Assembly (NCBI GenBank): GCA_044892525.1 | Contig: CM097887.1 | Span: 87,088,397 to 87,152,396 of the forward strand | Direction of reading: 5' to 3' | Length of the DNA: 64,000 bases | From: Schmidtea polychroa | Lineage: Eukaryota | Shown: positions 2,880 to 24,985 of the stretch, piece by piece | Position numbering within the stretch: position 1 is the first letter of the stretch | Layout of the letters: every line of letters begins with the position of its first letter | Translations under genes and position numbers: made by a program | Notes under the pieces: model-generated | What the model was told of the DNA's origin: nothing | Databases searched by the model: none | What the model saw: only the letters and a program-made list of their open reading frames with translations

Positions 2880-5800
2880 CGAGAAAGGGGCCAACAACAA
2901 CGACCACCACAGCAAAATAATAATTATATAGCGAATCCGCAACGACAAAGTAACCCTAACGAAGGAAAACAAATGAACGTTATGCAGGAAATTTCGCAGA
3001 TGAAACAGATGATGCAACAAATGATGAGACCAAGACAAGAATCAGCACCACAACAAACCCAGAATATACGTATGATGAGGAGTACCGAAAATCTCAACAA
3101 TTATGAAGTGCATCAACATGTACAAGAATGGCAAAGGCTACAGGCCGAGGAAGAGAGGATAAAACAAGAACGCAACCAACAACGACAAGAACAACCATTG
3201 CGAATAAATATGATGAAGTTAGTAAAAGACATGAAGAGCCAGTATTGCTACAATTACGGGAAAAGCCCAAGGGTAGTACCCATGACTGAACCAGAAAAGG
3301 TAAAAGAAATAACAACGGAAATGAAAACAGAGAATTCAACCACGATTTTAAAAGGAAACCAGAGAATTCAGAAAATATTCTGGAAAAAGATAAAAGATAA
3401 AATCGAAAAAGAACATAATAAAGCGAAAGCCGAGACAGAAGATGAAAATAACAAGAGCAAGGAACAAACCAGTCAACTAAACCACCAAATGCTACAGGAA
3501 TTAGGATCAGAAGAAACAACGATATTCGAAAGAAAGAAACTAAAGAGAGTACCAAGGATGAGAAACTTGCAAATCAATATGATGAAAAGGACAAAAGATG
3601 TAGCATCGTCAGACGAGGAAGAAGACTATGTAAGTAGTTTGGGTGGAGAAATACTACAGCTGAATGAAATAAGCGAACCTCCAAAAGGGGAAATCAAAGA
3701 GGAAGAAGGCGAAAGCGAGATAACCAGCGAAAGTGAAGACGAGGATATCGAAATAAAGTTGAGAAAAGGGAAGGAGGAAGCGATAAAACAAGTAGCGGAA
3801 ATACTCCCAGTAGTAGTGAGGAACCAAGAGTTCATTGACGTAATACCATTCAGGCGATTCGTGCAAAAAGTGATGAAATTGGAAAGAAACGAGAAAGATT
3901 TAATACCAAACGAGGAAAAATCAATTATAAAAAATTATATGGAAAAAATGAAGCAGGCCGATACCACGCGGTATGTAATAAAAATCGGAACAAGTAGAGG
4001 ACTTGAAAGAATGTGGATAAAAAATACAGTCACCGACGAACTTTTCGATTGGATACGAGAGCATTTGGGAAGTTCGAGAAAGAAAGAATATCTGTATCAA
4101 TACCAAGGAGAACAGATCAAACCAGATATGCACTTAGTAGATGCACTAATATGGCCAGGAGAAACGCAAATACTGAAGTTGCATAAAGAAAAACAACCAG
4201 CCAACCTTTACGATTGGGCTAAAGATGCCAAGGCAGAATATGATTTTAATATCAAATTGAAATTAGAACAAATAAAACAATGTACTCTGAGACGAAACCT
4301 GGATAAGCTGATCAAACAAATTCAAGAACAAGTAGAAGACAACTGGGATTTACTCATCACCAGACGAGCCCCAGCCATGTACGAACTAATGAGCCGGTTG
4401 CGAGATACAGAAATGCTCCGAATGAGTGATTGGAGAACCATAAATTTGATCCACAAATATGGAAGGTTAAAAGAAACCCAGCCACAGAGGTTGGAAATAA
4501 CCATATGGTTACCGAACGAAGAAAAACGACGAATAAAAATGAGCAATCAGAGTACAGTGGATGACTTGGTATCAAAAATAAACCAAGAGATAACGGAAAA
4601 GGTACGTAGCGAAAGTAGTGATGGTATGGTGGATGATGTAGTCATGATGTACGATAAGATAATATTACGAGCGGAGGACGACACCTCGTTAAGCGAAATG
4701 GGTATGTGGGACAATCACCAGATAATCAGGATAGTACCAATGGATGAATTTCGAACAAGAGATGTAACCTATCAAAAAGAAATACGAGACCGGATGAAAA
4801 CGTTATATCAAAAATCTACGGAAATAATTAAAATCCACCAACAATGGTTAAAAGAAAAAGAACTACAAGGAAAAATCACGAAATTAAGCACCAGATCCTG
4901 CAGACGAACCCCATGGGAAAGAGTGTGGAATGCAGAAAGTAAGGAATGGGAAATCCGGAAAGGAACCTTCGTGGAAACAGACATTGGTGAGGCAGAAAGT
5001 GAATCGGAGGAAGAAGAAGAGGAACCTCCAAAATATGAAGAGGAAGCAAGGGAACAGACATCAGATGACGAAGGCGAGACGGATGTCACATCAGAAAGCG
5101 AAAATGAAGCGAGACATATTCATGCAATGAGGAAAAAGGAACGTGAATATGCTGATATGGACGGCGAGGAAGCGACGGAAGCAAGAGAACGAGAAGAGAA
5201 AGAAAGATATAAACAATTAGGCGATACCTTAGCAATGGGAGCGAAAAATCAAAGACGCCAAGTAGTAGCGTTGGCTAACATCATCTTAAAGACATCAGAG
5301 GACATCCACAATCTGAGAGGAATGGCAAAGGCAATAGAGGAATACCGGCAATATAATGAATGGTATCCAGAACAGCTAGAACAAATTATTCGAAAATGGA
5401 GAAATCAGGAATGGGCACAAGACACCCAGGAGAGGTATCACATCCGAATCAAGTATCCAGACAAGAGCATCGAGGAACTAGAGGTGCATCCAACAACAAA
5501 AATTAGAGAATTAAAAAAGAAATTAGCATATGAAACTCCATTCCATCTGCAACTGTTCGGAAAATCACTAGACGATAATGCAGACGTCGGGATAACCCCC
5601 ATGAGATTGGAAGAGACAAATGTATTAACAATGGCAGAAACGTTGGGAAAACCGTTAAAAAGGAAAAGTAAAATTATTAAACCAACAAAAGGCAGTTTGA
5701 GTACTCCAAGTCCGAACAAAGCACCAAGTAAATCTAATGAAACTGAAGAAGTTGAAGAGATAATCCTGGAAGATAGTGACGATGAACCAGGAGAAAGATC

Positions 5801-8800
5801 ACCGCTATTAGTGAGATGGCCGACAGGAGCCGAAATGTGGACTAACAACCAGCCATCAACGAGTTATCAACAACCAACGAAACTGAACATCGAAGAAATC
5901 ATCGACAATACTACGGAAACCGAAACGGATGAACAATTCCAGAAGCAAAGAGAACCAACGAAAGTAACACCAGAAAGTCAAACCGACAAAATAATAGACG
6001 AATGGAATGAGTGGCTAAGAAATAACGATAGCTCATTACCCAGAACGGATAACGAAAGAAATCCGAATTACGAAAATACCAGAGAAGCAGGAACGATGAT
6101 GGAAAAACGGGCAAAAGGAAGACCCAAGAAACAAGGAGAAAAGTCTGAGTTCAAAACCAAAGAACAATTAAAGCAAGAACAAGGGCAAGTTCGATTAGAA
6201 AAATTGGATAAAATAGTATGGGATCTAAAGGAAGCCCAACCAACGATCGAAAGAGGAGAAAAATGGATACGAGAACTGTTAAAAGATATGTTAATAATAA
6301 CAAACCCACAACTTAGACGTTTGTGGCAACGGAAAGTAGCCAGTACGGAAGCTAGACAATTATGGCACACCATTTCGGGGATAATCCCAAAGTTAATCAA
6401 AGAGAAAACGAAAACCACCAAAACGGATTGGGACGAAACAAAGAGAGTGATTGAGCAGCTCACGACAAATGCAAATGATGACGAGCATCACCTAGTGGTA
6501 ATCACTTATTTGATGTATAATTTGATGGGACTAGCTGCGAGGAAAATACCAAATAAACAGTTTGCAAATCATGTAGAAATGACCGTTTCAATCATAGAGA
6601 ATACTATTGAACCACACATTATTCGTGCAGGAGGATGGAAAAGACTGATACAAGCGCCACGGAAAAATGAGCAAGAAAGGTCGATGCAAGTTAGATTGAA
6701 AAAACTGTTAAATGAACTAGAATGGGAACTACCGATGAAAGATCCCGCAAGCAGAAAAGCATCAATAAATTCGTTAATGATGACTATGATGATATGGATG
6801 TTGTGCACAAGTGGAGCAACAGGTTTCACCATCTACGATTGTGATAACATGATAATGAGAGATAAATACTCATTGAGAGACATAGAAGAATGCAGACAAG
6901 CCTCACCCAACAAATTGGACATCGTGAGAACAAAAGTTACTTACCATGTATATCAAGAATCAGATTTCATCAGAACGCAAGCAAGGGAATGCGTAGTATC
7001 AAAAAAGGTACTCGCATATTACTGTGGACAATATTCGTATTCGACTCTTATACTACCCGGTCTGGATAAAGAAATCGTATCAATACAACGAGAGGATTGT
7101 AAAGAGCTATTTAGAACCGGAGCGCTAAAAATGCATAACGGAGTGACAATTCACGGACAAACTGGAATGATTAAAACCGAAAGTGTTTACGTATCCGGAA
7201 AAGTAAAATCATCAGATGGGTCATGTAACGGAGGTACGTATACGATCCGAGGCGAGGTAATATCGGGAGTTGTAGTGATCGAGTCTTACACGGTCGAATT
7301 AAAAGAATACGAAGCGCAATTTGACGCAAATAATTACCAAATGAAGACCAACCCAACGTGTAGAGCTACAGAAAACGTATGCAGGACAGGAGTATCAACT
7401 ATAATCTATGAAGCTAATACCCAAAAATGCCGACTCCAACTGTTAAAAAGTGCTTTGTTCAATGAAGTAAAAGGAGAAATATATGAGAACGAGAACGACG
7501 AGGATGGAAACGACAGAGTGAGAATGCGAAATGGAAAACCAATGCCACCATCTCCCAGAGAAAAGAGACTTTCAACGCAGAAGACACCAACAGCATTAAT
7601 CACAGACGATCCAGATCTAGGTATGAGATTTATCAAAGAGAAAGAAACCACCAAATGTGACAGTATAGTATATAAAACCAATTACGCAGGTATCTATATG
7701 TCGAGACAAATAATCGATAGAGCAGTGGGAAAGATAGCAACGGAGGACGTAAAACTATACTTATATGCAAATAATAAAATGGATTTTCTATTTCATCGCG
7801 GACAAACGACCTTGCAAAAAGTATATTACGATCTAATACAAAACGATTGTTCATTGAATAAAGAAATATTGAAAACAAAGCTAGCTATTGCGATAACGCA
7901 CCCAGATAACACGATGCCATCACTCCCATTACCAGATGGACACTTTGGTAGAATGGTAGGAGAAGTGATGTACACATACCAGTGTACCAAGACGTATGCA
8001 CGAATGCCAGAAAAATCCATACTACCCGAAAAGAGATGTGCAAATGAATTAGAAATCCGTTATAAAGGACAAAATCGATTCGTCCAACCAGTCACTAGAA
8101 TTATGAATCCAGTGGGTTTCTACCCAAATCTCTTTAACTGTTCTAATGCATACGGACCTTTATATGAAAGGCCCGATGGGAAATGGATGATGTTACCGGG
8201 AAAAACCATATCCGAGGAGCCCAAGAAATTTGGATTAATAGAACTCGCCACAGAGCTGGATTTCAAACCTATAGACGTGTCAAACGGTGGTATGTATTCC
8301 CCAGAAGATCTAGAAACAGCACGACTTAACGTACTCTTCCCAGCCAGACGAGAATCCATTTTGTCTAATATGGTAACAATAACTGGGGGCACAAACTATC
8401 AATCAGGCCCGAATTACGAGCTGCTATTATCGCCAGACCATTTTCAACAAGCTACGTCAAACATGATGAAAGCAATGTGGGGAAGATTCTTAGTTTTTGG
8501 ACAAATGATGGCCGGGATATTAGGGATCATACTCATAATTCAGATAGTCAGAGTAATACTAACACAAATGTTAGCTTGTTTCGATATATACAAGCGGGAA
8601 AAGAAAGTTAATTGGAAAATGATAGTAGGCTTCTTACCATTTTTAGCTAAGACCATGGTATTACATGGCCACTCAAAAGACATTCATCGGATAAAGCGAT
8701 TGATTAAAATATTAACAAAGATTAAAGGAACCGACGAAGAAGTAGGCAGACGATTCCGGAAAGTAATGTACGATGAAGTAACAAGACGACAATTGAGAAA

Positions 8801-11800
8801 GAATAAGCCAAAATTCTTGGACCGATTTAGAAGCCAATCATCTAACAGCGATAGTGACGACGATGATAACGGGAACGATAAATGTCTTTATCCAAACAGA
8901 AACCCAAACGAAAAACCAATGGAAACGGCACCATATTGGGAAAAGGAAAAGACAAACACCTGGATCGCCAATGGAAGCTATATACCACCGGATATCGTGG
9001 GACCACAAACAGCTTTGACCATGACACAAAATATGTATCCGCAATTACCGAGTCAACCCGGTATGCATTATATGCCAACACGACGTACCAAAAGTGTAGA
9101 TCAAGCAGATGACGTAAGAACAATAGCAGCGATGAGTTTACCTGGAGGTCCAGCAGTAACAGTTATGATTCAAATCAATGGTAAAGAAACCAATGCTATG
9201 ATAGACACCGGAGCTAATGTATCAGCGATAGCGATTAATCAAATCCCCAGTAAACACTGGAAGGATATCGAATCAACAACAATTCACATCATAGCATGTA
9301 GTAAAGAAACAGTGGACGTGGTCGGAAGATGGTGGACTACATTGAGATACCAGGACAACGAAATTGAAACGTATTTGGCAGTAATACCAAAACTTAGCGT
9401 ACCATGCATAATCGGAACGGATTTGATGCCAGAATTGTTAAAAGAAGTCGTAATTGACTTAACAACCATGTGTTTAAAAGACAAAACCGGTAGAATATGC
9501 AAAATGAATGCAGTCATCAGATGTCCAGGAAAAATAATAGTACCAGCAAAATCACAGATGATTTGTCAGATAAAAGTGGATACGGGTATGGAAGGAGAAG
9601 TTATCTTTGAACCAAGCAAGTCATTTGAAAAGCGACGAGAATTACCACTCGCAAGAGAAATAATCACAATAAACCAAGAAGGAGTGATACCGCTCAACAT
9701 CACGAATTTCGAAGAGGAAGACAAAATCATTTATGAGAACGAAAAATTGGGAAGATTGACCCCAATGATGGACATAGAATTACCGAAAGTGACCAACGAG
9801 ATGATCAAAGATGATGAATTATGGACAATAGATAGTATGTTGTTGACGAATGACGAAAAGAAAAAATTGCACCGATTGTTGGTAGAATATAAAGATATAT
9901 TCGCCATCTCAGATTTAGACTTGGGTACATGTGATGTTACCTTACATGCAATACCACTCATAGACGAAACCCCAATTGCATTGAGACCATACAAGCTAGC
10001 AGAAATGCAGAAAGAAATAGCCGAAACAGAAGTACAAAAGATGCTAGACGCAAAAGTAATCGAACCAAGTTGCTCACCCTGGCAATTCCCAGTGGTCATG
10101 GTGAAAAAGAAAGATGGCACCCAACGATTCTGTATCGATTATCGGAAGTTAAACGCAGTGACCAAGAGAGATACCTATCCATTGCCGGACATCAATGAGA
10201 TGTTATTGATGTTGCAAGGGGCAGCATATTTTACTTCTTTAGATCTAAAAAGTGGATACTGGCAGATTAAAGTCAAAGATGAGGACAAAGAGAAAACAGC
10301 TTTCACGTTGGGACGAGATCTATATCAATTCAGGAAAATGCCATTTGGACTGACTAACGCACCAGCATCATTTCAACGGTGTATGAACTTTGTCACCCAT
10401 GGAATCAAACAATGTATGGTATATATTGATGATTTACTAATCTATTCAGCGACATTTGAACAACATATGGAAGATATCCGAAACGTATTTATTAGATTAA
10501 GACAGTGGAAACTCAAACTCAAACCATCAAAATGCGATTGGGCAAAGGAAAAAGTCACGTTTTTAGGACACATAGTGTCAGCTAAAGGAAAGGAGCCAGA
10601 TCCAAGAAACATTGAGAAAATAAAAACATGTCCAGCACCGAAAACTGTCACCCAAGTTCAGGAATTTCTAGGATTATGCGGATACTATCGCAAATTTATC
10701 AAAAATTATGCAGGAATTGCAAAACCAATCCAGGAATTAGTAAAGAAGGACATTTCGTTCTTATGGGGGAAGGAACAACAAGAGGCGTTTGAAACGCTGA
10801 GAGACAAACTAATCGAAGCACCTATCCTCGTACACCCAGATTTTAAGAAGCCATTTCTATTGGCAACGGATGCAAGCGGGTACGCGGCAGGCGCGATTCT
10901 GGGACAATTAGACGATGAGGGAAAAGAGAGAGTAATCGGGTATTACAGTCGAACATTCAAAAAGCACGAAAAGAACTATTCGGTAACAGAACGAGAAGCA
11001 TTGGCTATAATACAAGCTATCAAACACTTTCGATATTTACTATGGGGACATGAGATATGCATAACCACAGACCATCAACCATTAGTGTGGTTAGGGCAAC
11101 ATAAAGAAGCGTCCAGTAGACTGATGAGATGGGCCATGCAATTGCAAGAATACTCCCCATTTATAAAATTTAAAGCGGGAAGAGCAAATGCCAACGCTGA
11201 TTGTATGTCAAGATTTATTTTCCCAGATTTGGTGGATTCAGAAATGCAACGCATATGCTTAATAGTAGCGGAAGATTTGGATTTCTGTCAATTGCGAAAG
11301 GACCAACAAGAGGACGCGGAATTAAAACAAATTATCGATTATATAAAAACCGGACAGACAGATGTATATGCGAAAGACCAAAAATTAAAAGAACATATGG
11401 ATAAACACCGACACCGATATATTATAGAGAAAGATTGGTTGCTGATAATGGATGGGGAAAAACGATTAATGTGTATACCGGAAAACCGACGAAAAGAGTT
11501 ACTAACGCAATATCACGATGGGAGATTGGGAGGACATATGTCATCGAAAAAGACGTTAGCAAGAATGAAACAGAAATATTTTTGGCCTACGTTAACGGAA
11601 GATGTAACCGAATGGGTAAAAAATTGTCTAACTTGTGCAACCAGGAAGAATACGGGATCGAAATGGAAAGCACCTTTAACGCCAATGCCAGTACCAATAG
11701 AACCAATGACAATGATATCCATGGACGTAGTTGGTCCACTACCAGAGTCAGATAAAGGAAACGTTTACATTCTGGTGATCACAGACTTTCTTACGAAATT

Positions 11801-14800
11801 TCCAGAAGCATTCGCGATGCCAGACCAAAAAGCTAAAACAATCGCCAAAATTCTGGTAGAAGAGATATGTTGCCGATATGGAACACCAAAACAGATATTA
11901 ACCGATCAGGGAACTAATTTTATGAGTGAGATAATGAGCGAAGTAACAAATTACTTCAAAATAGCAAAACTAAGAACATCTCCATACCACCCTCAAACCA
12001 ATGGGATGACGGAAAGATTTAATGGAACACTTATACAAATGTTATCAAACTACGTTGACCGTCACCAACGAGATTGGGACGAATATATAAACCTATGTCT
12101 TATGGCGTACAGAATGTCGATTCACGCATCAACGAAAATGAGCCCATTCAAATTAATGTACGGAAGAGAATGTAATATGCCAATGGACCTGGAATACCAA
12201 CCACCGATATCGCAGTATATGGAGATCGATGATTATGTTACGAAATTCAAGGAAAGAATGCAAGAAATTTGGGAAACTGCGGGATTAAATATCAAGTTCT
12301 ACCAGGAAAGTTATAAAGATTTACACGATCGAAAGAAAAACGTGAAGCAACATACGTTCCAAACAGGTGATTGGGTAATGATAGAAACCCCGGAATTAAT
12401 TCCAGGAACCACAAAAAAGTTACAACGCAACGGAAAAGGACCATATGAGATCTTATTCGTAGGCGAAACTAATGTAAGAGTGAAATTGGTAAATAACCCC
12501 TTTACCAGACCAATATACGTAAACGTGGCACGATGCAAATCAATTCCAAAAACAGCCACTAGTCAACCAGAAGGCCGTACATTAACCACACGTTCGCAAA
12601 CCTACCGAATGAACATGATGCAACAACTCGCAGAACCGATCACCGGACGATTGGGTATCCAACCATCAGAAGCGGAAAAGATTGTAAAAGAGGTAAAAAT
12701 TAAAATACCTGGATGGGCGAAAGATCGATTAGATTTCGAAATATTAGGAGGATTATTGACGATGATCGAGAACTATGCAAATAGAGAAAGGACACACCCA
12801 TTATTGCGAGTAGTCAAAAGCCAATGGCCAATATTATTTACAATAACAGATCATTACGGAGACACACCATTACACAAACTCATGAAAGTAGGTAACAACG
12901 AGCAAATACTAGAAACAATAGAAGCATTTCACGACTGCAAGCGATCAACAGAACAAACAAACAACCAAGGTTACACACCATTAATGATAGCCGCAAACAG
13001 AGGCAAAACAAAAGACATTATAACCGCATTACTCGATACCGGATCGAAAATAACTACACAAGACCACGAGCGGAAAAACGCTCTACATCATGCTATCAGA
13101 GGGAGAAGTACCGAGGCGTTCACGTCATTGATGGAACTACTATCATATGAGGACAATCGGGAAGTCGGAAACATGTATGATGGATTGCTAACAGCGATCA
13201 AAGAAAAACTGACGACAATTACCGGAATATTAATTACATGGAGAAATCCAATTCGAAACGATTATATGATCAACGTAAACGAAGCGTTCACGAGAGGAGA
13301 GAACACGCTGATGAGAGAAGCTATGAAAGGACATCATTTATTCGAAATCCCGAATCAATTACTAGAACGAGGTATAAAATTCACAAATCACAAAGACGAA
13401 CAGTTAACAAAAAAGCGAATCGACACATTCGAAAAATCACTATTCCAATTTACTAACCAAGTACGACATAAATATTGGGAAACAGTAAGTGTGTTATATA
13501 TGATGGACACGATGAATAACATCCGCGAGAATTACATGGATATTATCCAAATACTTACAGCAGAGGAACGAATCAATAATCCAAACGGAAAGAAAACGAA
13601 AATAAGGTATGAGAAATCCAGGGAATCAAAGTCAACAACGAACCAAACGGTCACAAACAACGTCATCGAAACCAAATCAATGAGTATAGATCAAGAGGCA
13701 ATAATACGCAAAGCAAAAGAAGTGTTCTTTGAGGAAATGCTAGAGCTGCCAGACGAAATAATATTGTCCAAAATAATAAAAGCCGTACACACATACGCAA
13801 GAGATCAAACCACGGGTTTAGATATCGGGAAAATCAAAACCTTCTTGCCTCGAGCATTTACGATGGTAACGAAGGATTCCCGAACACCCCTACAACAAGC
13901 AATACTAGGTGCAAAAGAGAATAGAGCAATAACGATCATGAGAATCCTTGGGGAGATGGGCGAGGAAACCAACACGAAAAATGAACAAGGTGAAACCGCC
14001 ATGATGTATGCAGCTATAACGAAAATACACCCAAAAACACTCCACATCCTACATCAATCAGGATCGAAACTAGACGAAAGGTCCAATGAAGGAAATTCCA
14101 CCTTGGACTGGGCAACCATACAGCCAAACTTAGAAATGATCAGATTTATTTGCAAAAATGCGACAGAAGAAGAAGTTGAAAATATGTGCAAAAACACATC
14201 TCAGTTTCAATGGAATACGGTACGGAAAAATCTAGAAGCAATGAAATTATTATTAACCTGGAGAGTACCACCAAATAATAAATATGCGATAAATGTAAAC
14301 GAATTCTACGAAAACGGAGAAAATGCGATGGTAAAGAATACCCTAACTAAGGGGGGGACGCCTAAAATTATTTTAATAGTATTAAATAGAGAAGACCTAA
14401 AATTCACGCAAAATCAGAACGAGCAACAACGAATTGGGAAACATCGTCGTATGCAATTGAGAGAGTTAGTTAAAGAATGGAATAGAAAGAGACATGCTGC
14501 AACGGGTAGAAAAGAGTTTGAATTCGAAGCAAAATTAGCAAGAAACAGAGTGCTAACAGCATATCGCAGATTATTGAACGATATAAATGTCGAGGACGAC
14601 ATTTTAAATGACAGCAAGGGAGATAAACACGATGACAATAACGGAAAAGACCGAAAGGAGGATAAAGAGAAAAGAGAACCGGAGGAGGGTAAACCAGAAA
14701 ACAAGGATTCGGATACGAAAAGAGAGGGAAACAGCCCGAGAACCAAGACCAAAGAGGAGGAAAAATCGAATAATGGAAAACAGAGGGTATGCCTACCTTT

Positions 14801-15827
14801 CACTAACAAAGAAATAGAGACAAATATGATATTAATGATAATTATGCTTACCATGATAGAGTTAGTAACAGCTCAGGGAGGGACGAGAACGATAAAAGAA
14901 ACCAAAGAAGCGGAGAATCAAGATAGCAAAGAGGATGAACTAAAACAAGAAAAGAGAAAGCAAGCACAAGAGCAGCAGTGGGATTTAAAGGAAGAATGGG
15001 ACTTAAAGGAAAGGTGCATACTAGGAAGATGCATGTCTAGAGCGTATCAGAAACTAGTACTGATAAATGAGGACACAGAACCAATAACAGAAGTAAGAAT
15101 ACAAGAAGCATACCGAAATCGAGACGGGAAGAGAATAACGAACGTCAAAGGAAAAGAGGTACACCTAGGAAAAGGTGGTGAAGTAGTAATAACGCAGATC
15201 CAACCTAGAAAAGAGCACAAAGTCTGTATTTCAAGATTAGGACCAGGTGAGAGATGCCATCAATATGTGACGCAGCAGCAGCCGCCGAAAGAATACACGG
15301 TTTGTATCTGGAGGAATGAATCAAAAAGAGAATGCCGACGATACCCGGGGAAAAGAGGAAGGAAAAGAAAAAACCACGACGAAAAGAACGAAGGAGGAAA
15401 GCACAAGAAAACTGGTGAGGAAGCTCAGGACAACTATGTTTCGGAGGAAGAGATGGAAAAAATACAAAAGATGGCAAAGGAGGGTATGAACGAGGAAATA
15501 GCAAGAATACGGGAAATGATGAAAGGAAATGGCAAAAGAGGAAACGAGAAAAGTACAGAAGCGATATCAACATTAACCAACAAGGAAAAACCAGAGAGTA
15601 TAAGCGTGAAGCAGATGATGTGGATCAGTGGGATAATAATAACAGGGGCATTCCTAATCATAACGGGGGGAACAATAAAAATAATTAAAGATAAACGACA
15701 TCGCGGAGAACTAGAAATGACCCGAATCAGAAACTTCCAACATCGAGTGAAACGACCAAGTGATATCAAACAAGGACAGTGGGTGGAGGCCTGGAACGTT
15801 CAGCGCCCTCCAAACTCACGTATATAG
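1974..15827 (+). CDS. 4617-aa Gag-accessory-Env-Pol-ankyrin polyprotein
   Basis: Single open frame; retrotransposon gag capsid, 3x CX2CX4HX4C, DTG protease, YIDD RT, DAS RNase H, HHCC + DDE + GPY integrase and ankyrin repeats are all recognisable. The frame is also open upstream to 1629 without an ATG. Confidence 0.95.
   Translation: [4617 protein letters not shown]
3966..5640 (+). other. Three ubiquitin-like (beta-grasp) domains inside the polyprotein (~3966-4187, ~4491-4739, ~5436-5639)
   Basis: By-eye match to the ubiquitin pattern: [28 protein letters not shown]...[43 protein letters not shown]...[10 protein letters not shown], and a weaker first copy ([25 protein letters not shown]). 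No C-terminal di-Gly. Confidence 0.6.
6264..6650 (+). other. Bcl-2-like helical domain (divergent, viral-type)
   Basis: Ends in BH2-like [15 protein letters not shown] (GGW at 6630-6638), preceded by a hydrophobic helix [13 protein letters not shown] at the BH1 position. The canonical NWGR motif is absent. Confidence 0.6.
6765..8660 (+). other. env: Envelope glycoprotein, chuvirus-glycoprotein / herpes gB-like class III fusogen type, in frame upstream of the protease
   Basis: Internal signal peptide ([18 protein letters not shown]), then FTIYDC...YSLRDIEEC...YYCGQYS...DGSCNGGTY...YANNKMDF...CSLNKEIL...GEVMYTYQC...RCANEL...FVQPVTR...C..AYGPLY..W, the Cys/motif pattern of chuvirus-like glycoproteins. 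TM segment [25 protein letters not shown] at ~8487-8582. Confidence 0.8.
9150..9450 (+). other. Retroviral aspartic protease
   Basis: [23 protein letters not shown] (DTG at 9204) ... CIIGTDLM. It is followed by the dUTPase-fold-like spacer common in gypsy pol (~9510-9760). Confidence 0.93.
9960..11215 (+). other. Reverse transcriptase and RNase H (Ty3/gypsy type)
   Basis: [51 protein letters not shown], YIDD (10422-10433), FLGHIVS. RNase H: [40 protein letters not shown]. Confidence 0.97.
11490..12540 (+). other. Integrase (HHCC, DDE core, GPY/F tail)
   Basis: YHDGRLGGH...CLTC; [37 protein letters not shown]. Confidence 0.97.
12800..14340 (+). other. Two duplicated ankyrin-repeat modules C-terminal to integrase
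   Basis: [26 protein letters not shown]; then [25 protein letters not shown]. Both modules end in the shared motif L(I/L)TWRxPxxNxYxINVNExxxxGEN (~13227 and ~14247). Confidence 0.85.
14826..15827 (+). other. C-terminal type-I membrane protein segment of the polyprotein
   Basis: Signal-like [17 protein letters not shown], Cys-containing luminal part with FN3-like [15 protein letters not shown] / [36 protein letters not shown] (~15615-15686) and a basic tail. Confidence 0.55.
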
Positions 15828-15987
15828 AAAGGAATATGACTGTATATAATTGTAAAAAGTAAGTATATCTTATGTATATAACAGTACTATATCTCTATAT
15901 AAGCGCGGTATCAATATTATACAATAACGGGAATCATAAAATAAAATTAAATTTACATAAGAGTTGAAAAGTGTATATAAATTAGGA

Positions 15988-16347
15988 ATGGATCAAGGAA
16001 ATAACGAAATGAACCACAATACAGTAACTGAAGAATTATGGAAGCAACAATGTGCCGTATTAGCACAATTAGTGTCCAATTTGCAAGAACAAGGACTGAC
16101 GATGCACAGAAACCTGATCGAGAGTATGAACAGAGGATTTAGTTATTTGAAGATAATTGAAGACCAGAGGTTAAAAATCGAACAAATGCAAAGAGAGATA
16201 GAGAGGATAACCCAATATAGCCGTCGACAGGAAATTGAAATAGACCGAATGAGGGAGGAAGCGGAACAGACAGAAATAGAAGACTGGTCGGAATGGCTAA
16301 TGAATAGAGAGGAGAGCGGGCACGAAGCCGACTCTTCCGAACCCTAA
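15988..16347 (+). CDS. Accessory ORF2, small coiled-coil protein of unknown function
   Basis: Clean ORF with element-like codon bias and heptad-rich IIEDQRLKIEQMQREIERITQY. First ATG is at 15988; the track starts at TTG 15964. Confidence 0.65.
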   Translation: MDQGNNEMNHNTVTEELWKQQCAVLAQLVSNLQEQGLTMHRNLIESMNRGFSYLKIIEDQRLKIEQMQREIERITQYSRRQEIEIDRMREEAEQTEIEDWSEWLMNREESGHEADSSEP

Positions 16348-16432
16348 ACCAAACCTAGCTTAAAATGTAAATAATTGTAAATAAAATATCGAACCTGTAT
16401 CGATAAGAACTATTTGTACATATAATTATAGA

Positions 16433-17821
16433 ATGGATAAACGACAAAGAGAAGAGTTCAGAGAGATTGTCGAGCAAGTCCGAAAATCTACAACGATCAG
16501 AATACACAAACATGTTATGTGCGGAATATGTGAAAAGTTGTTAAAGGAACCTCACCAAACGCAATGTGGATGCAGAGTATGTAAAGAATGTATCAGTGAA
16601 GCAATAAAGAATAGACCACAGAGGTGCCCGGTGTGTAAAGAGACACTAATATCGAGTTTAGAAGACACTAACGAGGATAAAGCCGCAGTGAAAGACATGT
16701 TAAACACCAACCTGGGATGCAAAAATGCCCCATGCGAATGGAAAGGAGTAATATGGAAGGTAGTACGACATATGGGAGAATGTATGTACAGAATTGGCCA
16801 GTGTGAAAGGTGCCATAAAACCATTCGAGCAAGCGAAGAAAAAGAGCATCAAAGGCAGTGTGAAGAGAGATTGGAAAGATGTGAACACTGTGGAGAAATA
16901 GATACGTGGATAAATCTCACCCTCAAACATCACAATGTCCAAGAGGAGAGAGTATGTGCAGAGTTCAGTGGGGAATGCCCAAACGGATGTAACCAAGGGG
17001 AAATAATGAAGGTGGCACAGCATCTAAGGGAATGCGCAAAGAAAAGAATGACATGTGTACTAGGTAGATGGGGTTGTCAGAAACTACTACACCGAGGTGA
17101 GTTACCACATCATTTAGTAGAAAATGCTTCAACTCACGCAGAAATGTGGTCGACTGCGCTACAAGAAAGCGAAGAGAAAGTAAAACAAATGGAGATAGAG
17201 ATAACATCGTTGAAAGTGTTAGTCAAAGAACTACTAGAAGAAAGGGAAGCGTTCGAAGAAGCCCGAGCAAACATAAAGATGCAAATAAACCGAACAGAAA
17301 TCAGTAATAATCAGGCCAAGGAGCTACATCAGAAAATACGGGAAATAAATCTAAATGAGATAACCCCAACAGCACCCTACATATGGAAAATAACGGGAGT
17401 AAAAGAAAGAATACGAAAAGCAAAAACCGGAGAAGAGACAAGAATAACAAGTCCTACATTCCATTCTTGGAAAAATGGGTACAAAATGAAAATGAAGGTA
17501 TATCCCAACGGGGACGGAACCGGATTGGATACGCACTTTTCGATTTTCTTTCTGTTATGTAAAGGAGAATACGACGAAATATTAGAATGGCCGTTCCAGG
17601 CAAAAATCGATATTACTCTGATGAACAACCAAAGTATACATGAGCAAAGCTTCAAAACAACGGGGAATCAAATAGCTTACCAGAGGCCCCTCAACGAAGA
17701 AGGATCAGCAACAGGAGCACCTACGTTCATCTCACAACAAAGAGTAGAAGATATGGCGAGAAATGATACCATATATATCAAGATGACCGTGAGGAAAGAG
17801 GAGAAGGGTAGAACGGAGTAA
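16433..17821 (+). CDS. TRAF: Full-length intronless TRAF-family protein carried by the retroelement
   Basis: RING CGICEKLLKEPHQTQCGCRVCKEC...CPVC, tandem TRAF zinc fingers, coiled coil, and MATH domain YIWKI...SPTFHSWKNGYKMKMKVYPNGDG...THFSIFF...GEYDEILEWPF. Confidence 0.95.
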   Translation: MDKRQREEFREIVEQVRKSTTIRIHKHVMCGICEKLLKEPHQTQCGCRVCKECISEAIKNRPQRCPVCKETLISSLEDTNEDKAAVKDMLNTNLGCKNAPCEWKGVIWKVVRHMGECMYRIGQCERCHKTIRASEEKEHQRQCEERLERCEHCGEIDTWINLTLKHHNVQEERVCAEFSGECPNGCNQGEIMKVAQHLRECAKKRMTCVLGRWGCQKLLHRGELPHHLVENASTHAEMWSTALQESEEKVKQMEIEITSLKVLVKELLEEREAFEEARANIKMQINRTEISNNQAKELHQKIREINLNEITPTAPYIWKITGVKERIRKAKTGEETRITSPTFHSWKNGYKMKMKVYPNGDGTGLDTHFSIFFLLCKGEYDEILEWPFQAKIDITLMNNQSIHEQSFKTTGNQIAYQRPLNEEGSATGAPTFISQQRVEDMARNDTIYIKMTVRKEEKGRTE

Positions 17822-18013
17822 CCAATCGAATAATGTTGTATATAATAATCTGTATATATCGGTGTATATAACCAATAAAATATTATATAATAATAGTATG
17901 AAAACCCTAAATACGAAAACCCAAAAATGATGCGAAAATTTCCCAAGAAACAGTAAATAATAAATAAATTCCTTTTCATAATAAAAAGATTAATCGATGT
18001 CTATGATTTAGAG

Positions 18014-19069
18014 ATGACACAAGAGAAAATAACCGAAACTGCGATAGCCCCAACCAATGTCAACAAGACACAAATTCCCCGGGAACATAATAAAAAATGG
18101 AACAAAGTAATGTTCCAACTAACTAATCTCACCCGAAATCACATCGAAGAAACTAGAGAAGATGAGAATAGTCAATACCAATGGTTAATACACAACTTAA
18201 GAGCGGAAGCAGAAGCATGCAAAAGAGCATCAAAATGGGCGTCACTAGAAAATACCCGCCAAGAAGCACACAGCCACTACTTAAAGCAGCTAGTGCAGGA
18301 AGCGAGAAAAAGACTTACCGATGAGAACACCAAGCGCGAAGCGGAAAAACAAATAGAAGACAGGAAAACGATGCACTTAGTGGCAGAAGCGAGAAAATGG
18401 AAAAGACAAAACAGAGAAATGAAAAAAGAGATGAAAGAATTGCCCATGAGACTCGGATATGAAAGCGAACAAGGTAAATGGGAGGAGAATTTAATAATAA
18501 AGGAAGAATTGAAAAGGTTGAGAAAGGTCGCCGCCCGAAGCCAAACCTGGCAAACAAAGGCTATGGAGTTTGAGCGACATTTGGCAATGAAGTGCGACAT
18601 AAGAGAGCACGAGAATGCCGCAATGGAAGAGATGATAACCCAACAAGCGGGACGGGTTGTGGAATTAGTAAATCAGGTAGAAGAGATGAAAAGAGACCTT
18701 AATGGATTACAAGGATCGCTGGAACAAAGAAACATGGTCCTAGCGGGAAAAAACAGAAAATTAGAAAACGAAAGGAAAATGTACACCGAAAATATTAAAA
18801 ACTTAGAAATAGAAATTGAAAAATGGAAGGGCGACGAGAAAATCAAGGCCCTAGACAAACAGATAGAGGCGAAAGACGAAGAGACAAGGTATCTCACCTA
18901 TCTGCTCGACGAGGAATTGAACATCACTCGAGCTCTAAGAGACGAAATTAATGAGTTGAGAGCTCAAATCCCCCAATATTACCTACCATACGACCCTATT
19001 GCGATACAGTTACATCCCGCGGTCGATAGTGATGAAGGGTATGTAGGCCAGGAGGAAACCTTCGTATAA
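18014..19069 (+). CDS. Accessory ORF4, long coiled-coil protein of unknown function
   Basis: 351-aa intact ORF, E/K/R-rich heptads over most of its length, element-like bias. Confidence 0.75.
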   Translation: MTQEKITETAIAPTNVNKTQIPREHNKKWNKVMFQLTNLTRNHIEETREDENSQYQWLIHNLRAEAEACKRASKWASLENTRQEAHSHYLKQLVQEARKRLTDENTKREAEKQIEDRKTMHLVAEARKWKRQNREMKKEMKELPMRLGYESEQGKWEENLIIKEELKRLRKVAARSQTWQTKAMEFERHLAMKCDIREHENAAMEEMITQQAGRVVELVNQVEEMKRDLNGLQGSLEQRNMVLAGKNRKLENERKMYTENIKNLEIEIEKWKGDEKIKALDKQIEAKDEETRYLTYLLDEELNITRALRDEINELRAQIPQYYLPYDPIAIQLHPAVDSDEGYVGQEETFV

Positions 19070-19240
19070 GGGTGGATGAAAAAAAATGAAAAACCAAAAA
19101 CCGGGAAGTATATCCCAAACAAAAAAAATTAAAGTATTGTAAAAGTATTCAAAGGACTGTAACCCAAACTATTAAATTTTATATCAATGTATACGTATAA
19201 GTCGCACTATAGCGCATCATTAACTGTACATATTATAGAT

Positions 19241-19939
19241 ATGAAAATCGAGGAAATGATAGAAATTATGAGCGACGTAGAAGAGGGAGAGATTGAGGCA
19301 GAAACAACAGAAACACAAACGATAAAGGCCGAGTTACGGGAAGAGAAATACGAAAACGGGAGATTAATAAACAAATACCTGGAGGACCGGAAAATGATAA
19401 AGGTGTTAAAGAAAGAGTGCGAAGCGTTGGGGGAAATAAAAAGAGAAACGGAAGAGGAAAATGAATGGCTACACGAACAAAGGAAGCGAGGGAAAAACTG
19501 GGAAAAGATAGCGGAAGAACTATGGAAAGAGAGGGCAAGCTTCAAAGCAAAGGAGGTAATCCAAGACTACTGGAAAACTGAGGCGAAGGAGCGCCAAACA
19601 GCTATAAATAAATTAAAACGACAACTAGAAGAAAACCAACGGGAAAGTAAAGAAATGAGGAAGTGGGTCCGCAAATATAGAGAAATAGAAAGAAAACATC
19701 AACAACAAAATTACCTGCAAGAAAACGAACAAGATCTCCTACAAATCGAGCTAAAAAGAAACCTTGAAAAGAAAAGGGAAGAAATTAGACGCTTGGAAAA
19801 AGAAATTAGACATCTAAAGAGAGAAGCCCGTGAAAAAGACCGACAATTGGAAATGCTGCCCGAGTTAAGACACAGGGTAATTAAAGCAGAGTCCACCTTG
19901 ATGAGAATCGGCGAAAATAATCCAAATCAGAACCATTAA
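19241..19939 (+). CDS. Accessory ORF5, coiled-coil protein of unknown function
   Basis: Intact ORF (track start 19187). The ATG at 19241 follows an acceptor-like TATTATAG. Heptad-rich. Confidence 0.7.
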   Translation: MKIEEMIEIMSDVEEGEIEAETTETQTIKAELREEKYENGRLINKYLEDRKMIKVLKKECEALGEIKRETEEENEWLHEQRKRGKNWEKIAEELWKERASFKAKEVIQDYWKTEAKERQTAINKLKRQLEENQRESKEMRKWVRKYREIERKHQQQNYLQENEQDLLQIELKRNLEKKREEIRRLEKEIRHLKREAREKDRQLEMLPELRHRVIKAESTLMRIGENNPNQNH

Positions 19940-19994
19940 ATTAAGGGTCATTAAAACCAATTGTAAATAAACATAATGAATGTATAATAGTATC

Positions 19995-20648
19995 ATGCGA
20001 GGCGAGATGATGATAACAATGATGGTATTGATGATTCTGATGGAGAGCAAACAAATAGACGCCCAACCGAAAATCGTACGAGATTACCGAAATCAAAATC
20101 AAGAACCTAAACAAGAATCCGGTCAATGCACATACCCGATGACCGTAAAAACCCATATCATCCAAACCATTCAATCAACCCGATCACACATCAACAACAT
20201 CCAAACAATGTGTAAAAAGAATCCCATTTGTAAAATGATAAACAAACAAATCCTCGAACAAATTCAACAATTCGACCAGTTGGAACAACAAATGCAACAA
20301 GAGAATTTTGGAAATCTGGTAGAAAAGCCAAAAACACCTCCCGAAATCAATGACACCCACTATCTCATATATGTGGTGATCGCAGAGACCCTCCTCCTAT
20401 GTCTACCAATATTCATGAAAATTTACGAAGTTCGAAATAGATGTAGAATCTCGACATCAATAAGAGTAACCTCGAACCAAAATCCTCAAGAAGTGCCCCT
20501 GACAAATCTTAACCCAACCCCATTCCGACCTCGAACCCCGAGTAATCAACCAATCCAGCCGAAATCTAATAGTCAGACCTATCTCAACATCAATACCCAA
20601 ACCAACCAACAGCCGCCAGCAGAAGCATCAATGGTTAACAATTCATAA
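19995..20648 (+). CDS. Accessory ORF6, putative type-I membrane protein
   Basis: Met-rich signal-like MMITMMVLMILMESKQIDAQ, short Cys-containing ectodomain, TM YLIYVVIAETLLLCLPIFM, and P/Q/N-rich tail. Confidence 0.65.
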   Translation: MRGEMMITMMVLMILMESKQIDAQPKIVRDYRNQNQEPKQESGQCTYPMTVKTHIIQTIQSTRSHINNIQTMCKKNPICKMINKQILEQIQQFDQLEQQMQQENFGNLVEKPKTPPEINDTHYLIYVVIAETLLLCLPIFMKIYEVRNRCRISTSIRVTSNQNPQEVPLTNLNPTPFRPRTPSNQPIQPKSNSQTYLNINTQTNQQPPAEASMVNNS

Positions 20649-20873
20649 ACTCTAATTCAAACATTTGTGTTATTATATGTGGAAACTTTTATTGTATGTA
20701 CCAACTATCACCTTAAGTGATACTTGCTTGGTCTTGCTTTGACCTTGATCTTACAATAAAATTTTTATCATTGTTGTATAATTTTCCGTGTTCGTGTTAT
20801 ATTTTTTTTGAATGAATGAATTAAGTTAATTATGCAATTGCGGGACGCAATTTTGATGGGTCCCCGAGTGATT

Positions 20874-21503
20874 TGTTGGGCTGAGTCGAAAATTTAATCG
20901 TTGAAAAATAAGAAAGTAGGGAAGTAGAACATTAAGAAAAATAAAAATAAAATAAATAAAATCAGAAATAAAATAGAATAAGATATAAGGAAAATAATAA
21001 TTAAGACATAAGAATTAAAACAAAAAATAAAATTAAGAAAAGATTAAAATAGAACAAGTTGACAAAGAAATAAAGAGGAATTCAAGAAATAATAAGGAAA
21101 TTAAGGAAATAAATAGAAAAACATATTAAAAATAAAGAAAATAAGGAAAAAACAACCTAAAAACAAGAAAATTATATTAAATTAATAGAAATAAGCGGTA
21201 CTCAACTCTGATTGGTCCGCACAAATAAGAATTTGATATATATACAACTACCAAAAACATTAAATTTACTGTTAACCCCGAGCATTTCATAGGTAAGAAA
21301 GAATGTTTACTGTTTTTACTGTTAACCCCGAGCATTTCATAGGATCGACACTACTAGCCAAGCAACCGTCATTCAGAAAACTCCACAACTATTCAAAACC
21401 AGTTCAGAGACCGAAATACCATTCATCACAATAATCGACATCCAACGGACCACCATTAGAACTATTTGGAACGAACAACATTGAATTTTGACTCAGCCTA
21501 ACA
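20874..21503 (+). repeat. Putative 3' LTR (630 bp) of the giant element
   Basis: Starts TGTTGGGCTGAGTCGAAAATT and ends AATTTTGACTCAGCCTAACA (~20-bp imperfect terminal inverted repeat, TG...CA). It lies ~225 bp after the last ORF and after a TTGCG-GGA-CGCAA hairpin of the kind often seen before gypsy PPTs. The partner LTR is not visible. Confidence 0.7.
21205..21300 (+). promoter_or_regulatory. Candidate LTR promoter and splice donor
   Basis: Reverse CCAAT box (ATTGG 21211-21215), TATATATA 21237-21244, then a 29-bp direct repeat (21265-21293, 21315-21343) whose first copy ends in AG|GTAAGA (donor GT at 21293). Confidence 0.5.
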
Positions 21504-23392
21504 ATAGTAAGGGGTATTTCATTTGTTTATAGATTTATTTAAGTATTTGCAAAGCTAATAACAATGTTAAATATTAACGATTAAACATTTTAGTTAACTC
21601 TCTTCATTTGATTCTCCATTTTAATAACTTTAACGTATTGATGGAATTTGTATTATTTAAGTATTTCAGAATCAATAAAATATTTTTATCCAGATGTCCG
21701 TATTTTATTTGAATTAAAGATTTTATGAATTTTCATTTAACGAGTAACGTGGAGTTGAGATACTCCATGTCATGGTATGAGGTGCCTTCGGGAGCTCAGC
21801 CGGTGGACATGGAGTATTTCAATCGCGCAGCTAGATTGGGCCGAAATGTGAAGGCTTCTTCACGGGTCCTATCGCTGAAGATGCGACTAAATTATCACAA
21901 TGGGGTATGGATAAAAGAATAACCGGTAGACAATGATTTCACAAAGATAGTCATACGAATGAAGTGATTTTCAAGGATTTGCACAGTGATTGAGGGCGTC
22001 GCATTCTTCTTTCATTCAGTCGTTTTCGTAGGTCTTACCCCTATTGGAAAAAGAGATCCAGACAACGATTTAGTGAACTTCGTCAAAAATAACAATATCT
22101 CATAGTACGCTTCATCTGGAAACATGGTTTTATCAAATTAATTGCGACAACGTCTATTTGCCGGACTCAGTAGAACTAAATTCGTATGAAATTCCATTAT
22201 CATAGACCCAATGTCATCTAACCTGTCCAGATTGTATGTCAGGTTACGAAAGTATTCTAAAAACTTTAACTAACTCGAAACTATAAAATGCGAGATTCTA
22301 CGAAAACCTCTCTAGTATTATAATCAGAAAGTTTTTATAGACTTAGTTATTTCAAAAATTATAAACAGGTAAAATATCACCAAATTTAATTAATAACATT
22401 TATTTCTACAATAAGAGCCAGGTCATCACTGTATATATCCAAATTATTGAACCTGAGAGAAAAGGACAGGTTTCATCGAGACGGCATTACATCTGAATAG
22501 GAAAATCCGAGTAGAATGACGAGAGTAGTAATATGCTCCAGTATTTGGTAGAATTATTCCCTCGACGATCACTGAAAAGATCCAATAAATTTCCAAACGA
22601 TGGTGATCATTCACACAAGTTGATAAGGGTAAAATTCCGCGATGAGAACTGGCGGTAGCATAAATCATAACTCAAATAAATCACTGTGCAGAGAAAATCA
22701 TACGACAGCAGGATCGATAAAATCACCGTGAAAATGGCATACACCAAGTGAGTGAGATAAGATAGTAGCCATACACGAATCCATGTGGTGAGAGCACAGA
22801 ATATCAGACTAGCATACATAGTAGTCGCGACACGTGACATTCACAATAGGTCGATAATGTAATCAACCAGTCGACAGCAGTATCCGTAAATTTGGATATG
22901 TTATGACCGATGGGATTTTCCATGAGGGTGTTAAAGTAATGGCTGATGTAAACTCATCACATATTTTCAGACCAATGGTAGACAACATAGATAATCACAT
23001 TCACTACCGAATTAAAAGTGCACTTCCAATAACAAATTTCGAATCAAAAATATGTTGAGAGCGATAGTAATTTGTTTTTAATAAATTAAAATAGATAACA
23101 TATAGCAAGGTTTGGTCGCATACTATAATGTCCCTCTACTAAAGCATTATTATATTATTTCACCAATATTATATTTACACCCTATCAATTATTACGTCCC
23201 TCATGCATACAGTTAGATCAATAGATAGTCAAAGTTAATAACATGCGTCAAGCCGATGGCATTTGGTTAAATAAACTGTTTTAACAACTAAGATCCGTAG
23301 TAAAACCGGATTGTAGAATAAGTTTTCCTTCTTTTCGACGGTCAAGTATCCACGAATGGACGCGGGTCGTATCTAATTTATTCTAAAATCGT

Positions 23393-24181
23393 ATGTTCTC
23401 CATTTCATTAGTATTATTTATAGCAAGCATGCTACCAACCACTAAATCGGCATTACGGCCGTGCTTCTCGTGCGCGGATAAAAATACGGTGATAAAGGAC
23501 CTACAAACTCAGATTGGACGTTACAAGAGGAAGATAGACGAGCTGGAAGGGACATGGTTTAGTCCCGCTCGGATGAAAGAGATCCAAAAGAAGCTCGATC
23601 GTAGCGAGCATTGCCGGGACGCGCTAATATCTGAGAGCCGTGCCCAAAGAAGTCTAATCAGAGAACAATCCGAGGCACTGCATAAGGTTTACGTGCAGGC
23701 GGCTACAACCCGAAAAATCGTGCAGATTCCCATCCGAGAGGCCGATGACATCTTTCCGCCTCATCACAACCTTTCCTCGAATCCATCTCCACCGTTCAAG
23801 AGACAGTGCCGAGACTGCGTCGAAACCGAATTGTCCCCCAAGCGTCCAGATGTTGTCATCACGGGTACCAGTAAACCCCCCACTGCTAGTCCATCTGTAT
23901 CAGTCACCCTTCTGCAAGTGGCATCTTCAAGCAAACCCAAGCGCAAACAACTCTCTCGTGCAGAGCGCAAGAAGAGACAGCGCGAGCGCGCTACTGCAAA
24001 GCCAAACATTCCATCAATAGAGGACTCAACCAACGGTGGCAACTCTCACGTGTCCATCGACCTAACAACGGGACCCTCAGCGCGAATCATATCAGCCGCT
24101 GGCGTAAGGTGGGAAGAGAACGCTTCCGAGTTTTTCAACCTCGACGAATTATTCGCCGACACTGAATGGGAGAAACAATAA
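23393..24181 (+). CDS. Orphan ORF-B family member (coiled coil + TWFxP motif + basic tract), copy A, apparently intact
   Basis: 262-aa ORF. ELEGTWFSPARMKEIQKKL matches NFESTWFPPAEMQKRL / NFECTWFPPAEMKKKM at 60.5 and 62.1 kb; its C-terminal half matches the 57.2-57.5 kb ORF. AATAAA occurs at the stop and at ~24305. Confidence 0.6.
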   Translation: MFSISLVLFIASMLPTTKSALRPCFSCADKNTVIKDLQTQIGRYKRKIDELEGTWFSPARMKEIQKKLDRSEHCRDALISESRAQRSLIREQSEALHKVYVQAATTRKIVQIPIREADDIFPPHHNLSSNPSPPFKRQCRDCVETELSPKRPDVVITGTSKPPTASPSVSVTLLQVASSSKPKRKQLSRAERKKRQRERATAKPNIPSIEDSTNGGNSHVSIDLTTGPSARIISAAGVRWEENASEFFNLDELFADTEWEKQ

Positions 24182-24439
24182 AACCCCAGTGGCGGTCAGG
24201 ATGAGGAACAAGGATCCGATCTATGTTGATTATGATGTTTTCTCTTCTTTCGACAAACATTAGTAAAGTGTACAGCTGAATCCTTGTGTCATAACGTTGA
24301 AATTAATAAATCTTGTTGTCTTACACGTTTTCGTTCATGAATAATTAGACTTTAATTAAGTGGGTTGAGTAGAGAACCCGCAAGATCTAGTGAGAATTTC
24401 CCAATTTGCATTCAGCGAATCCTGATAGGTGGTTGTGTA

Positions 24440-24715
24440 AGGAAATGGACGTAAGCCCTTCTATCGGCAGTCGTGAATGGGAAGTCGAGGCCTCAGCAAG
24501 GAGTAGTTTTAAGGCAGAAGCTCACCTGCTTGCTGGCGTCTCGCCTGCATAGTGCAGTACCAACGTGAAGTGATTCACGGGCACTATGTTGGAAGAAAGT
24601 TATGTGGGGTTTCACTCCAGGTTGACAAATCGGTGGCACCTTTTATTCGAGATGGACAATCAACCCTTAGACCCGCCAACATGGTAGAATGGTCAGCCGA
24701 GGTGTGACCCCAACA
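24440..24715 (+). other. Conserved structured non-coding block, copy A
   Basis: Shares GGAC..GCCCTTCTATCGGCAGTC, GCAG..CTCACCTGC and CAGTACCAACGT with the other copies. Closes with stem GGGGTTTCAC/GTGTGACCCC followed by AACA. Confidence 0.55.
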
Positions 24716-24748
24716 GTAACAAGAATTTCAAATACATTGGATTCAGGT

Positions 24749-24985
24749 CAGTGGCGTAACTAGTGGACGCAGGACCCTGCGTTGCGGGGGCCCAAAATTA
24801 TTACTAAAAAAATATTTAAAACATTTTCTGAAACTTTTTTCCCGCAGTTATATTTGCCTACAAACATAAAACTATCATTGAATAGCGGCTGCTGTGAATA
24901 ACTATGTATTAAACTTTAACCGAAAAATTTAAGTGGAAATATTTTACATTGCGCTGGGGGCCCAAATTTTGAAGTCCCGCCACTG
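24749..24985. mobile_element. hAT-type MITE (237 bp)
   Basis: Ends CAGTGGCG...CGCCACTG; 8-bp TSD ATTCAGGT/ATTCTGGT; subterminal TTGCG..GGGGCCCAAA repeats. Confidence 0.85.

Follow-up and report, generated by a model that had tools for sequence, protein, structure and literature searches.

How does a giant retroelement express a row of genes that lie behind one enormous open reading frame (ORF)? The question is raised by a 64,000-nucleotide (nt) stretch of the Schmidtea polychroa genome (assembly GCA_044892525.1, contig CM097887.1, positions 87,088,397 to 87,152,396 of the forward strand; hereafter the window), in which five accessory genes, ORFs A to E, stand between ORF1 and the 3' long terminal repeat (LTR) of a Ty3/gypsy retroelement. 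A first-pass annotation suggested that a short leader exon from the 5' LTR is spliced onto each gene and that each gene has a poly(A) signal of its own, or else that flatworm spliced-leader (SL) trans-splicing resolves the cassette like an operon. On balance we favour, with modest confidence, a reading drawn from the comparison of genomic copies: a Burro-type cassette expressed as in a complex retrovirus, in which an ATG-free 5' LTR leader would be cis-spliced before each gene and the messages would share their 3' ends.

The cassette belongs to a young, intact Burro-type Ty3/gypsy retroelement of ~30.0 kb (29,997 bp, with two LTRs of 3,842 bp each that are 100% identical). The window opens inside the element, and the 5' LTR, in the neighbouring stretch L027, ends 1,440 nt upstream of it. 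Within the single giant frame of ORF1, Pfam finds Gag-CCHC and then protease, reverse transcriptase, RNase H and integrase, with an envelope (env)-like fusion glycoprotein in frame between Gag and protease (PF24664, residues 1868-2207, E 6e-70) and ankyrin repeats (Ank_2); MATH and RING domains are found in ORF B. A BCL2-like match before env (PF00452, residues 1484-1555, E 0.061) lies under the cut-off. Env is fused into ORF1 and is not a separate gene; we make no claim of membership in Retroviridae. As described in part of PMC6431247, Burro and GYPSM1 are giant gypsy-like planarian elements, and ours resembles Burro in its length of ~30 kb, long LTRs, polyprotein (4,600-5,100 aa there) whose in-frame env separates Gag from protease, ankyrin repeats, TRAF/MATH domain and accessory ORFs. 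It differs in that TRAF is a separate gene 3' of ORF1, not within or upstream of it, and in having no BIR; no BIR/IAP domain was matched by Pfam in ORF1 or ORFs A-F, and we therefore do not assign the element to Burro1. A copy search returned at least 24 other copies at 93-100% identity (25 of 2,114 candidates scored), and a distant TRAF query led to lineages ~73-83% alike with the identical A-E order and an extra ORF in the LTR; another TRAF search gave 1 homologue. In the lineages L081-L103 identity to the window switches from ORF to ORF, a mosaicism which suggests that cassettes and LTR types often recombine.

The acceptor half of the earlier proposal stands: the five AGs before ORFs A to E are, by copy comparison, real and conserved sites of splice-acceptor type. 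Each of the five ATGs is preceded by TAG, as had been noted (AG at 15984, 16430, 18010, 19237 and 19989, with gaps to the ATG of 2, 1, 2, 2 and 4 nt), an arrangement with a joint dinucleotide-shuffle probability of 4e-7. Across 67 loci, in 65 of which D and in 56 of which E could be located, YAG lies 0-7 nt 5' of the ATG in 67/67 copies of B, 67/67 of C, 65/65 of D and 55/56 of E, and at such spacing before only 43 of 213 internal in-frame ATGs taken as a control. At B-E the AG is retained even between lineages with no more than 73% likeness, while the base at -3 switches between T and C; the distance from AG to ATG drifts between lineages. Extra in-frame ATGs stand farther upstream of C, D and E in copies of the window family and are absent from other lineages. 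Although the A-E acceptors are weaker than the T-rich acceptors of ORF1 and of ORF F (a further accessory gene, the sixth, which lies within the LTR), they fall inside the host's range, since host introns have AT-rich acceptors that include AAG. Short introns of host myosin genes (17 calls, two of them near-duplicates, from a search confined to AT-rich introns of 36-99 nt) measure 39-57 nt and end in TAG (10), CAG (5) or AAG (2), with 6-13 T per 20 nt compared with 6-10 at the A-E acceptors.

Which donors could serve these acceptors? Three are conserved, at 21293, 21507 and 1690 (the first two within the LTR), together with the acceptors before F, ORF1 and A-E. The polypyrimidine acceptor that the annotation saw before the main ORF, at 1370, is there and is conserved: in 8/8 elements it is followed by 508-686 ATG-free nt and the third donor. 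In a set of ten 5' stretches, three without a gag match were excluded. In 15 of 16 LTR types, exon 2 of the predicted leader has no ATG before a donor-like site is reached. Before ORF F, a TAG directly adjoins the ATG in 12/12 family-2 loci with intact F, and YAG lies 0-9 nt 5' of that ATG in all 9 F-holding stretches among the 10 5' stretches examined. F itself has no Pfam family above cut-off, its best Atlas score being 0.84. In 8/8 elements the Gag frame runs on without a stop for 107-169 codons 5' of its first ATG (window 1629-1973); this extension encodes a conserved Arg/Ser-rich peptide, with a conserved in-frame ACG at 1662 as a candidate non-AUG start.

The donor singled out by the annotation, AG|GTAAGA at 21293 behind a CCAAT-TATA promoter, is present, with the CCAAT box in reverse orientation, and its predicted role changes. 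Across 39 LTRs, which have 9 different leader ends between them, the exon-1 unit (20-30 nt, beginning 27-36 nt after the TATA start, ending in YAG and followed by GT) is duplicated exactly, the second copy closing an intron of 45-51 nt. Each lineage has its own duplicated unit, so something keeps the two copies alike. All 22 intron-bearing LTRs of the window family share the 10 nt that precede copy 1, while the 10 nt before copy 2 occur as 8 haplotypes, a mutation hotspot. This region is the same between the two LTRs of 15/15 window-family elements and of 7/8 others, the lone exception differing by one base inside the intron; agreement in 15/15 elements implies that the variants predate integration. 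The intron is lost exactly in 2 of 24 window-family copies (L021, L024), and window-type LTRs differ from those of L020, L022, L023 and L078 by 31 nt spanning AG to AG, as expected if a second acceptor had been used. In a sister lineage, a 49-nt GT-AG stretch is missing from one contig of run X1. Errors at the first-strand transfer point are known for retroviruses and Ty1. The 21293 donor thus appears to be used mainly for the 50-nt intron within the LTR, and 21507 and 1690 are the likelier donors for long jumps; with this change of donor, the splicing from an LTR leader that had been proposed is well supported by copy comparison, and cis-splicing is favoured over SL trans-splicing. A smaller env-bearing gypsy family (5 loci, LTRs of 0.8-1.1 kb) has no comparable cassette and, under the identical test, no LTR duplication at those 5 loci, so env-gypsy elements here do not have this design as a general rule.

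We propose the following cycle. The packaged RNA would, with high probability, carry the LTR intron spliced out at its 5' end; because that end is spliced, the first DNA strand would end in exon 1 plus exon 2 and pair with the second exon-1 copy in the unspliced 3' repeat. The intron would thereby be copied back, its end overwritten by exon 1 every cycle, and we accordingly regard rebuilding through first-strand transfer as very probable. With only slightly less assurance, donor 21507 is predicted to be joined to the F and ORF1 acceptors, and it is rather likely that the weaker acceptors of A-E receive either 21507 or 1690 as their donor.

Where would such messages end? Hexamers do occur where the annotation placed them (15940, 16380, 17874/17980, 19128/19171, 19966 and 20755), but they are not enriched over chance (joint shuffle probability 0.26 in spacers that are 46% A). 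In 19 loci, the rearranged L070 and L075 being excluded, a hexamer is retained in 18, 19, 18, 5, 13 and 19 copies of spacers 1 to 6, respectively. Downstream of the seven inner hexamers the T content is 0.15-0.33, compared with 0.55 after 20755 and 0.53 after the LTR site 21674, the only two that are followed by T-rich sequence. Thus AATAAA 20755, kept in 19/19 loci, is the sole convincing candidate for an internal poly(A) signal. The idea of a separate signal for each gene is not supported, and the accessory messages likely share nested 3' ends rather than individual poly(A) sites.

What the inner spacers do conserve is a putative Pumilio-type motif. TGTAHATA occurs 11 times in spacers 1-5 (shuffle mean 0.6, maximum 5), 0 times on the opposite strand and 0 times in 18 kb of ORFs; it is found in 19/19 loci for each of spacers 1-5 and in 2/19 for spacer 6. 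It fits the PUF consensus UGUANAUA as given in part of PMC5855632. The spacers, which separate the genes by 55-192 nt on one strand, are far better conserved across lineages than third codon positions. We consider it fairly plausible, as a joint claim, that messages end mostly at 20755, that genomic RNA continues into the LTR and that TGTAHATA provides Pumilio-type sites, of which the ORF1 message would have 11 and the E message none, with falling numbers between. The complete scheme, a full complex-retrovirus map in a gypsy element with a multi-exon LTR leader, seven spliced messages, a Pumilio dose gradient via nested 3' untranslated regions (UTRs) and a self-rebuilt intron, is tentative and falls somewhat short of probable.

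Several observations weigh against this picture. At ORF A the majority of copies have AAG (40/67) rather than TAG (27/67), and to reach the A-E acceptors the LTR donors would have to span ~20 kb and pass over the stronger acceptors of F and ORF1. Copies of one lineage are related and the lineages are mosaic, so the counts overstate independence. The search for donor 2 admitted six motifs, and one match alone is weak. L077 and L029 have the promoter and GT with no copy of 10 nt or more, and no promoter match was obtained in L065, L070, L075 and L076. Slippage accounts for part of the hotspot, which falls within a T-run that has a short repeat, and the X1 contig with the 49-nt gap includes sequence 5' of the start site in a run guessed to be RNA, so that it may derive from an intron-less genomic copy. 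Junctions were sought in contigs of runs guessed to be RNA: no leader-to-acceptor joint was among the 15 joints listed, of 37 in all, for the window (contigs of four runs, mostly X4), no leader-to-A-E joint among the 6 listed for L097 (contigs of X1 and X6), and no loose end at an acceptor among the 12 listed, of 98 in all, for the same contigs. Contigs drop short tips and rare forms, and the missing leader joints therefore decide nothing; one X1 contig passes the D acceptor unspliced, which is compatible with every model. Genomic retrocopies gave 0 matches to the exon 1 end plus ATG and 0 to the exon 2 end plus ATG (two lineages). These routes could easily miss a leader-to-A-E junction, and we infer that step from conservation. 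Finally, TGTAHATA is limited to those spacers that have a gene after them, in many cases 12-15 nt ahead of the AG, and could thus have a splicing or promoter role, and a TATA-like box in spacer 1 is conserved with GC-rich bases next to it.

These last features are what one would expect if each spacer were a small internal promoter, with TGTAHATA as a DNA element and YAG as part of an initiator. The accessory genes of foamy viruses are driven by an internal promoter, and spacer 1 is conserved at 81-88%, compared with 47-68% at third codon positions of ORF A. We nevertheless hold this distinctly unlikely: a start at YAG would leave a 5' UTR of 3-9 nt, TGTAHATA stands 12-15 nt ahead of the AG instead of 30 nt, occurs on one strand only and conforms to the PUF consensus, and ORF F, with the identical YAG-ATG layout, has a classic T-rich acceptor. 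The closeness of TAG to ATG is also said to resemble coupled termination-reinitiation signals, as would befit one long RNA read by stop-restart or leaky scanning, with TAG as the stop of small upstream frames. Such a mechanism is very improbable, given that CAG takes the place of TAG in 6 copies at C, 4 at D and 10 at E, that AAG does so at A, and that the upstream ORFs stop 55-192 nt earlier.

Trans-splicing of the host SL onto each A-E AG, with the LTR donors serving F and ORF1 only, would account for A-E acceptors unlike those of ORF1 and F. Tandem same-strand genes with an AG before each start do recall flatworm SL operons (PMC12582326 and PMC8629364, in part), the spacing falls within the flatworm operon threshold of 300 bp, and the parts of PMC12582326 drawn on here report that cis- and trans-splicing frequently use common acceptors and that SL trans-splicing occurs in Schmidtea. 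The cassette differs from such operons in having conserved donors upstream in cis, whereas trans-splicing dominates at acceptors that lack one (PMC8629364, in part), and in that the inner poly(A) signals of the upstream genes are not conserved; moreover, flatworm leaders end in ATG according to the same sources, but of 322 site copies only 26 have an AG-to-ATG gap that is divisible by three. We regard this alternative, which the annotation had also raised, as unlikely. Because the element itself bears cis signals for a spliced leader, cis-splicing is the most economical account of A-E. That account could in turn be combined, as the annotation proposed with the adenovirus late unit as one parallel, with individual poly(A) sites following each of the ORFs: hexamers are kept in 18-19 of 19 loci in spacers 1-3, with TGTA motifs upstream, and one X6 contig ends in an A-run in spacer 4 of L097. 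This A-run, however, lies on genomic A8, and others lie inside ORFs B and D, as internal priming gives; together with the chance-level hexamers, their retention in only 5/19 loci (spacer 4) and 13/19 (spacer 5) and the lack of T-rich sequence downstream, this leaves individual poly(A) sites with little probability. The cis-spliced leader with shared 3' ends is the reading that we carry forward, and the features that compose it are collected in Table 1.

Table 1. Features of the element within the window, numbered from the first letter of the window.
Feature	Position	Strand	Description
ORF1 5' exon	1370..1973	+	T-rich acceptor 1370-1371; 602-nt ATG-free exon; conserved third donor 1690
ORF1	1974..15827	+	4,617 aa; Gag, CCHC, fusion glycoprotein, protease, reverse transcriptase, RNase H, integrase, ankyrin repeats
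Spacer 1	15828..15987	+	three TGTAHATA; donor-like GTAAGT 15859; TATA-like box 15896; acceptor AG 15984
ORF A	15988..16347	+	119 aa; no Pfam family
Spacer 2	16348..16432	+	three TGTAHATA; acceptor AG 16430
ORF B	16433..17821	+	462 aa; TRAF-like (RING and MATH)
Spacer 3	17822..18013	+	three TGTAHATA; acceptor AG 18010
ORF C	18014..19069	+	351 aa; no family above cut-off
Spacer 4	19070..19240	+	short hairpins; one TGTAHATA; acceptor AG 19237
ORF D	19241..19939	+	232 aa; no family above cut-off
Spacer 5	19940..19994	+	one TGTAHATA; acceptor AG 19989
ORF E	19995..20648	+	217 aa; no family above cut-off
Spacer 6	20649..20873	+	AATAAA 20755; hairpin about 20707-20722
3' LTR	20874..24715	+	3,842 bp; TG...CA ends; 4-bp target duplication
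Promoter boxes	21210..21244	+	reverse CCAAT 21210; TATA 21237; layout identical in all LTR types found
Leader exon 1 (predicted)	21265..21292	+	starts 28 nt after TATA start (putative start site); ends TAG; no ATG
LTR intron	21293..21342	+	50-nt GT-AG; last 28 nt (21315-21342) a copy of exon 1; hypervariable spot 21313-21317
Leader exon 2 (predicted)	21343..21506	+	164 nt; no ATG
Donor 2	21507..21512	+	GTAAGG; candidate major splice donor (predicted use); T-rich sequence next
Candidate LTR poly(A) signals	21580..21679	+	ATTAAA 21580; AATAAA 21674; 3' of donor 21507
ORF F	23422..24181	+	sixth accessory gene, in LTR; acceptor AG 23422-23423; likely ATG 23429; 250 aa

Other features of the element and its surroundings deserve mention. 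The donor-like GTAAGT of spacer 1 (15859-15864), 31 nt past the ORF1 stop, is kept in 19/21 loci; it could bind U1 and favour read-through, or could serve to splice out part of the cassette, and a search for genomic copies spliced at this donor gave 5 matches, all retaining the unspliced donor. Short hairpins occur in spacer 6 (20707-20722) and spacer 4 (19103-19117), and by eye the spacer-6 stem has paired changes on both sides between lineages. A stable hairpin region in the LTR (21747-21885, z -5.4, 79-87% alike in sister lineages) has a loop region that resembles the element's own primer-binding site; it has no Rfam match, nor did Rfam at curated scores match anything in 15700-24800. The primer-binding site lies ~7 nt past the 5' LTR (L027, about 8561-8590), is identical in 9/11 stretches and resembles a tRNA-Pro site, a candidate assignment. 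Between it and the ORF1 acceptor is a tandem repeat with a unit of ~74 nt (window 1-681). At the end of ORF1 (14800-15700) two hydrophobic stretches, by eye one like a signal peptide and one like a membrane anchor, may mark a second membrane protein. A Suppressor of forked / CstF-77 fragment (PF05843, E 2e-22) lies at 25737-26042, 1 kb beyond the element. Elsewhere, a smaller gypsy family of 17.7 kb (L189-L192, G000:C1:110148057-110188056) likewise places an in-frame env after Gag and ahead of protease, in a frame of 3,319 aa, and has an 81-aa ORF behind a T-rich AG within its 5.3-kb 3' region.

How does this organization compare with known systems? In foamy and other complex retroviruses the accessory genes lie between the main ORFs and the 3' LTR, as A-E do here, and are expressed from spliced subgenomic messages, as we propose here. 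Plant Ty1/copia elements, which are likewise LTR elements combining splicing with poly(A) choice, reportedly make a subgenomic gag RNA by splicing and early polyadenylation; there is one subgenomic RNA there, compared with seven predicted acceptors here. Lee et al. 2026 (Dev Cell), on Burro1, may already describe some transcripts. The placement of a donor in the LTR 5' of the LTR poly(A) signal is another likeness to foamy and other complex retroviruses, and foamy viruses silence the 5' LTR poly(A) signal by such an arrangement, as set out in part of PMC3694450. The element differs from foamy viruses in that a whole intron lies in the repeated region and is apparently rebuilt, a poly(A) signal stands before the 3' LTR, and there are six accessory genes, one of them inside the LTR. 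The section of PMC6431247 on Burro is silent about accessory ORF expression, and the literature that we searched, with subscription papers and supplements outside its scope, yielded no account of Burro splicing, of downstream-gene expression or of a rebuilt LTR intron.

Finally, Burro elements carry host-control genes, and one Burro element is reported in part of PMC13465017 to protect planarian stem cells; the present map gives exact predicted junctions for Burro accessory genes. If our proposal is true, the hotspot would mark the strand-transfer point from genomic sequence alone, and the element would remain intron-bearing despite replicating through spliced RNA. Introns are as a rule erased by retrotransposition, and one that restores itself in this way would be an exception.

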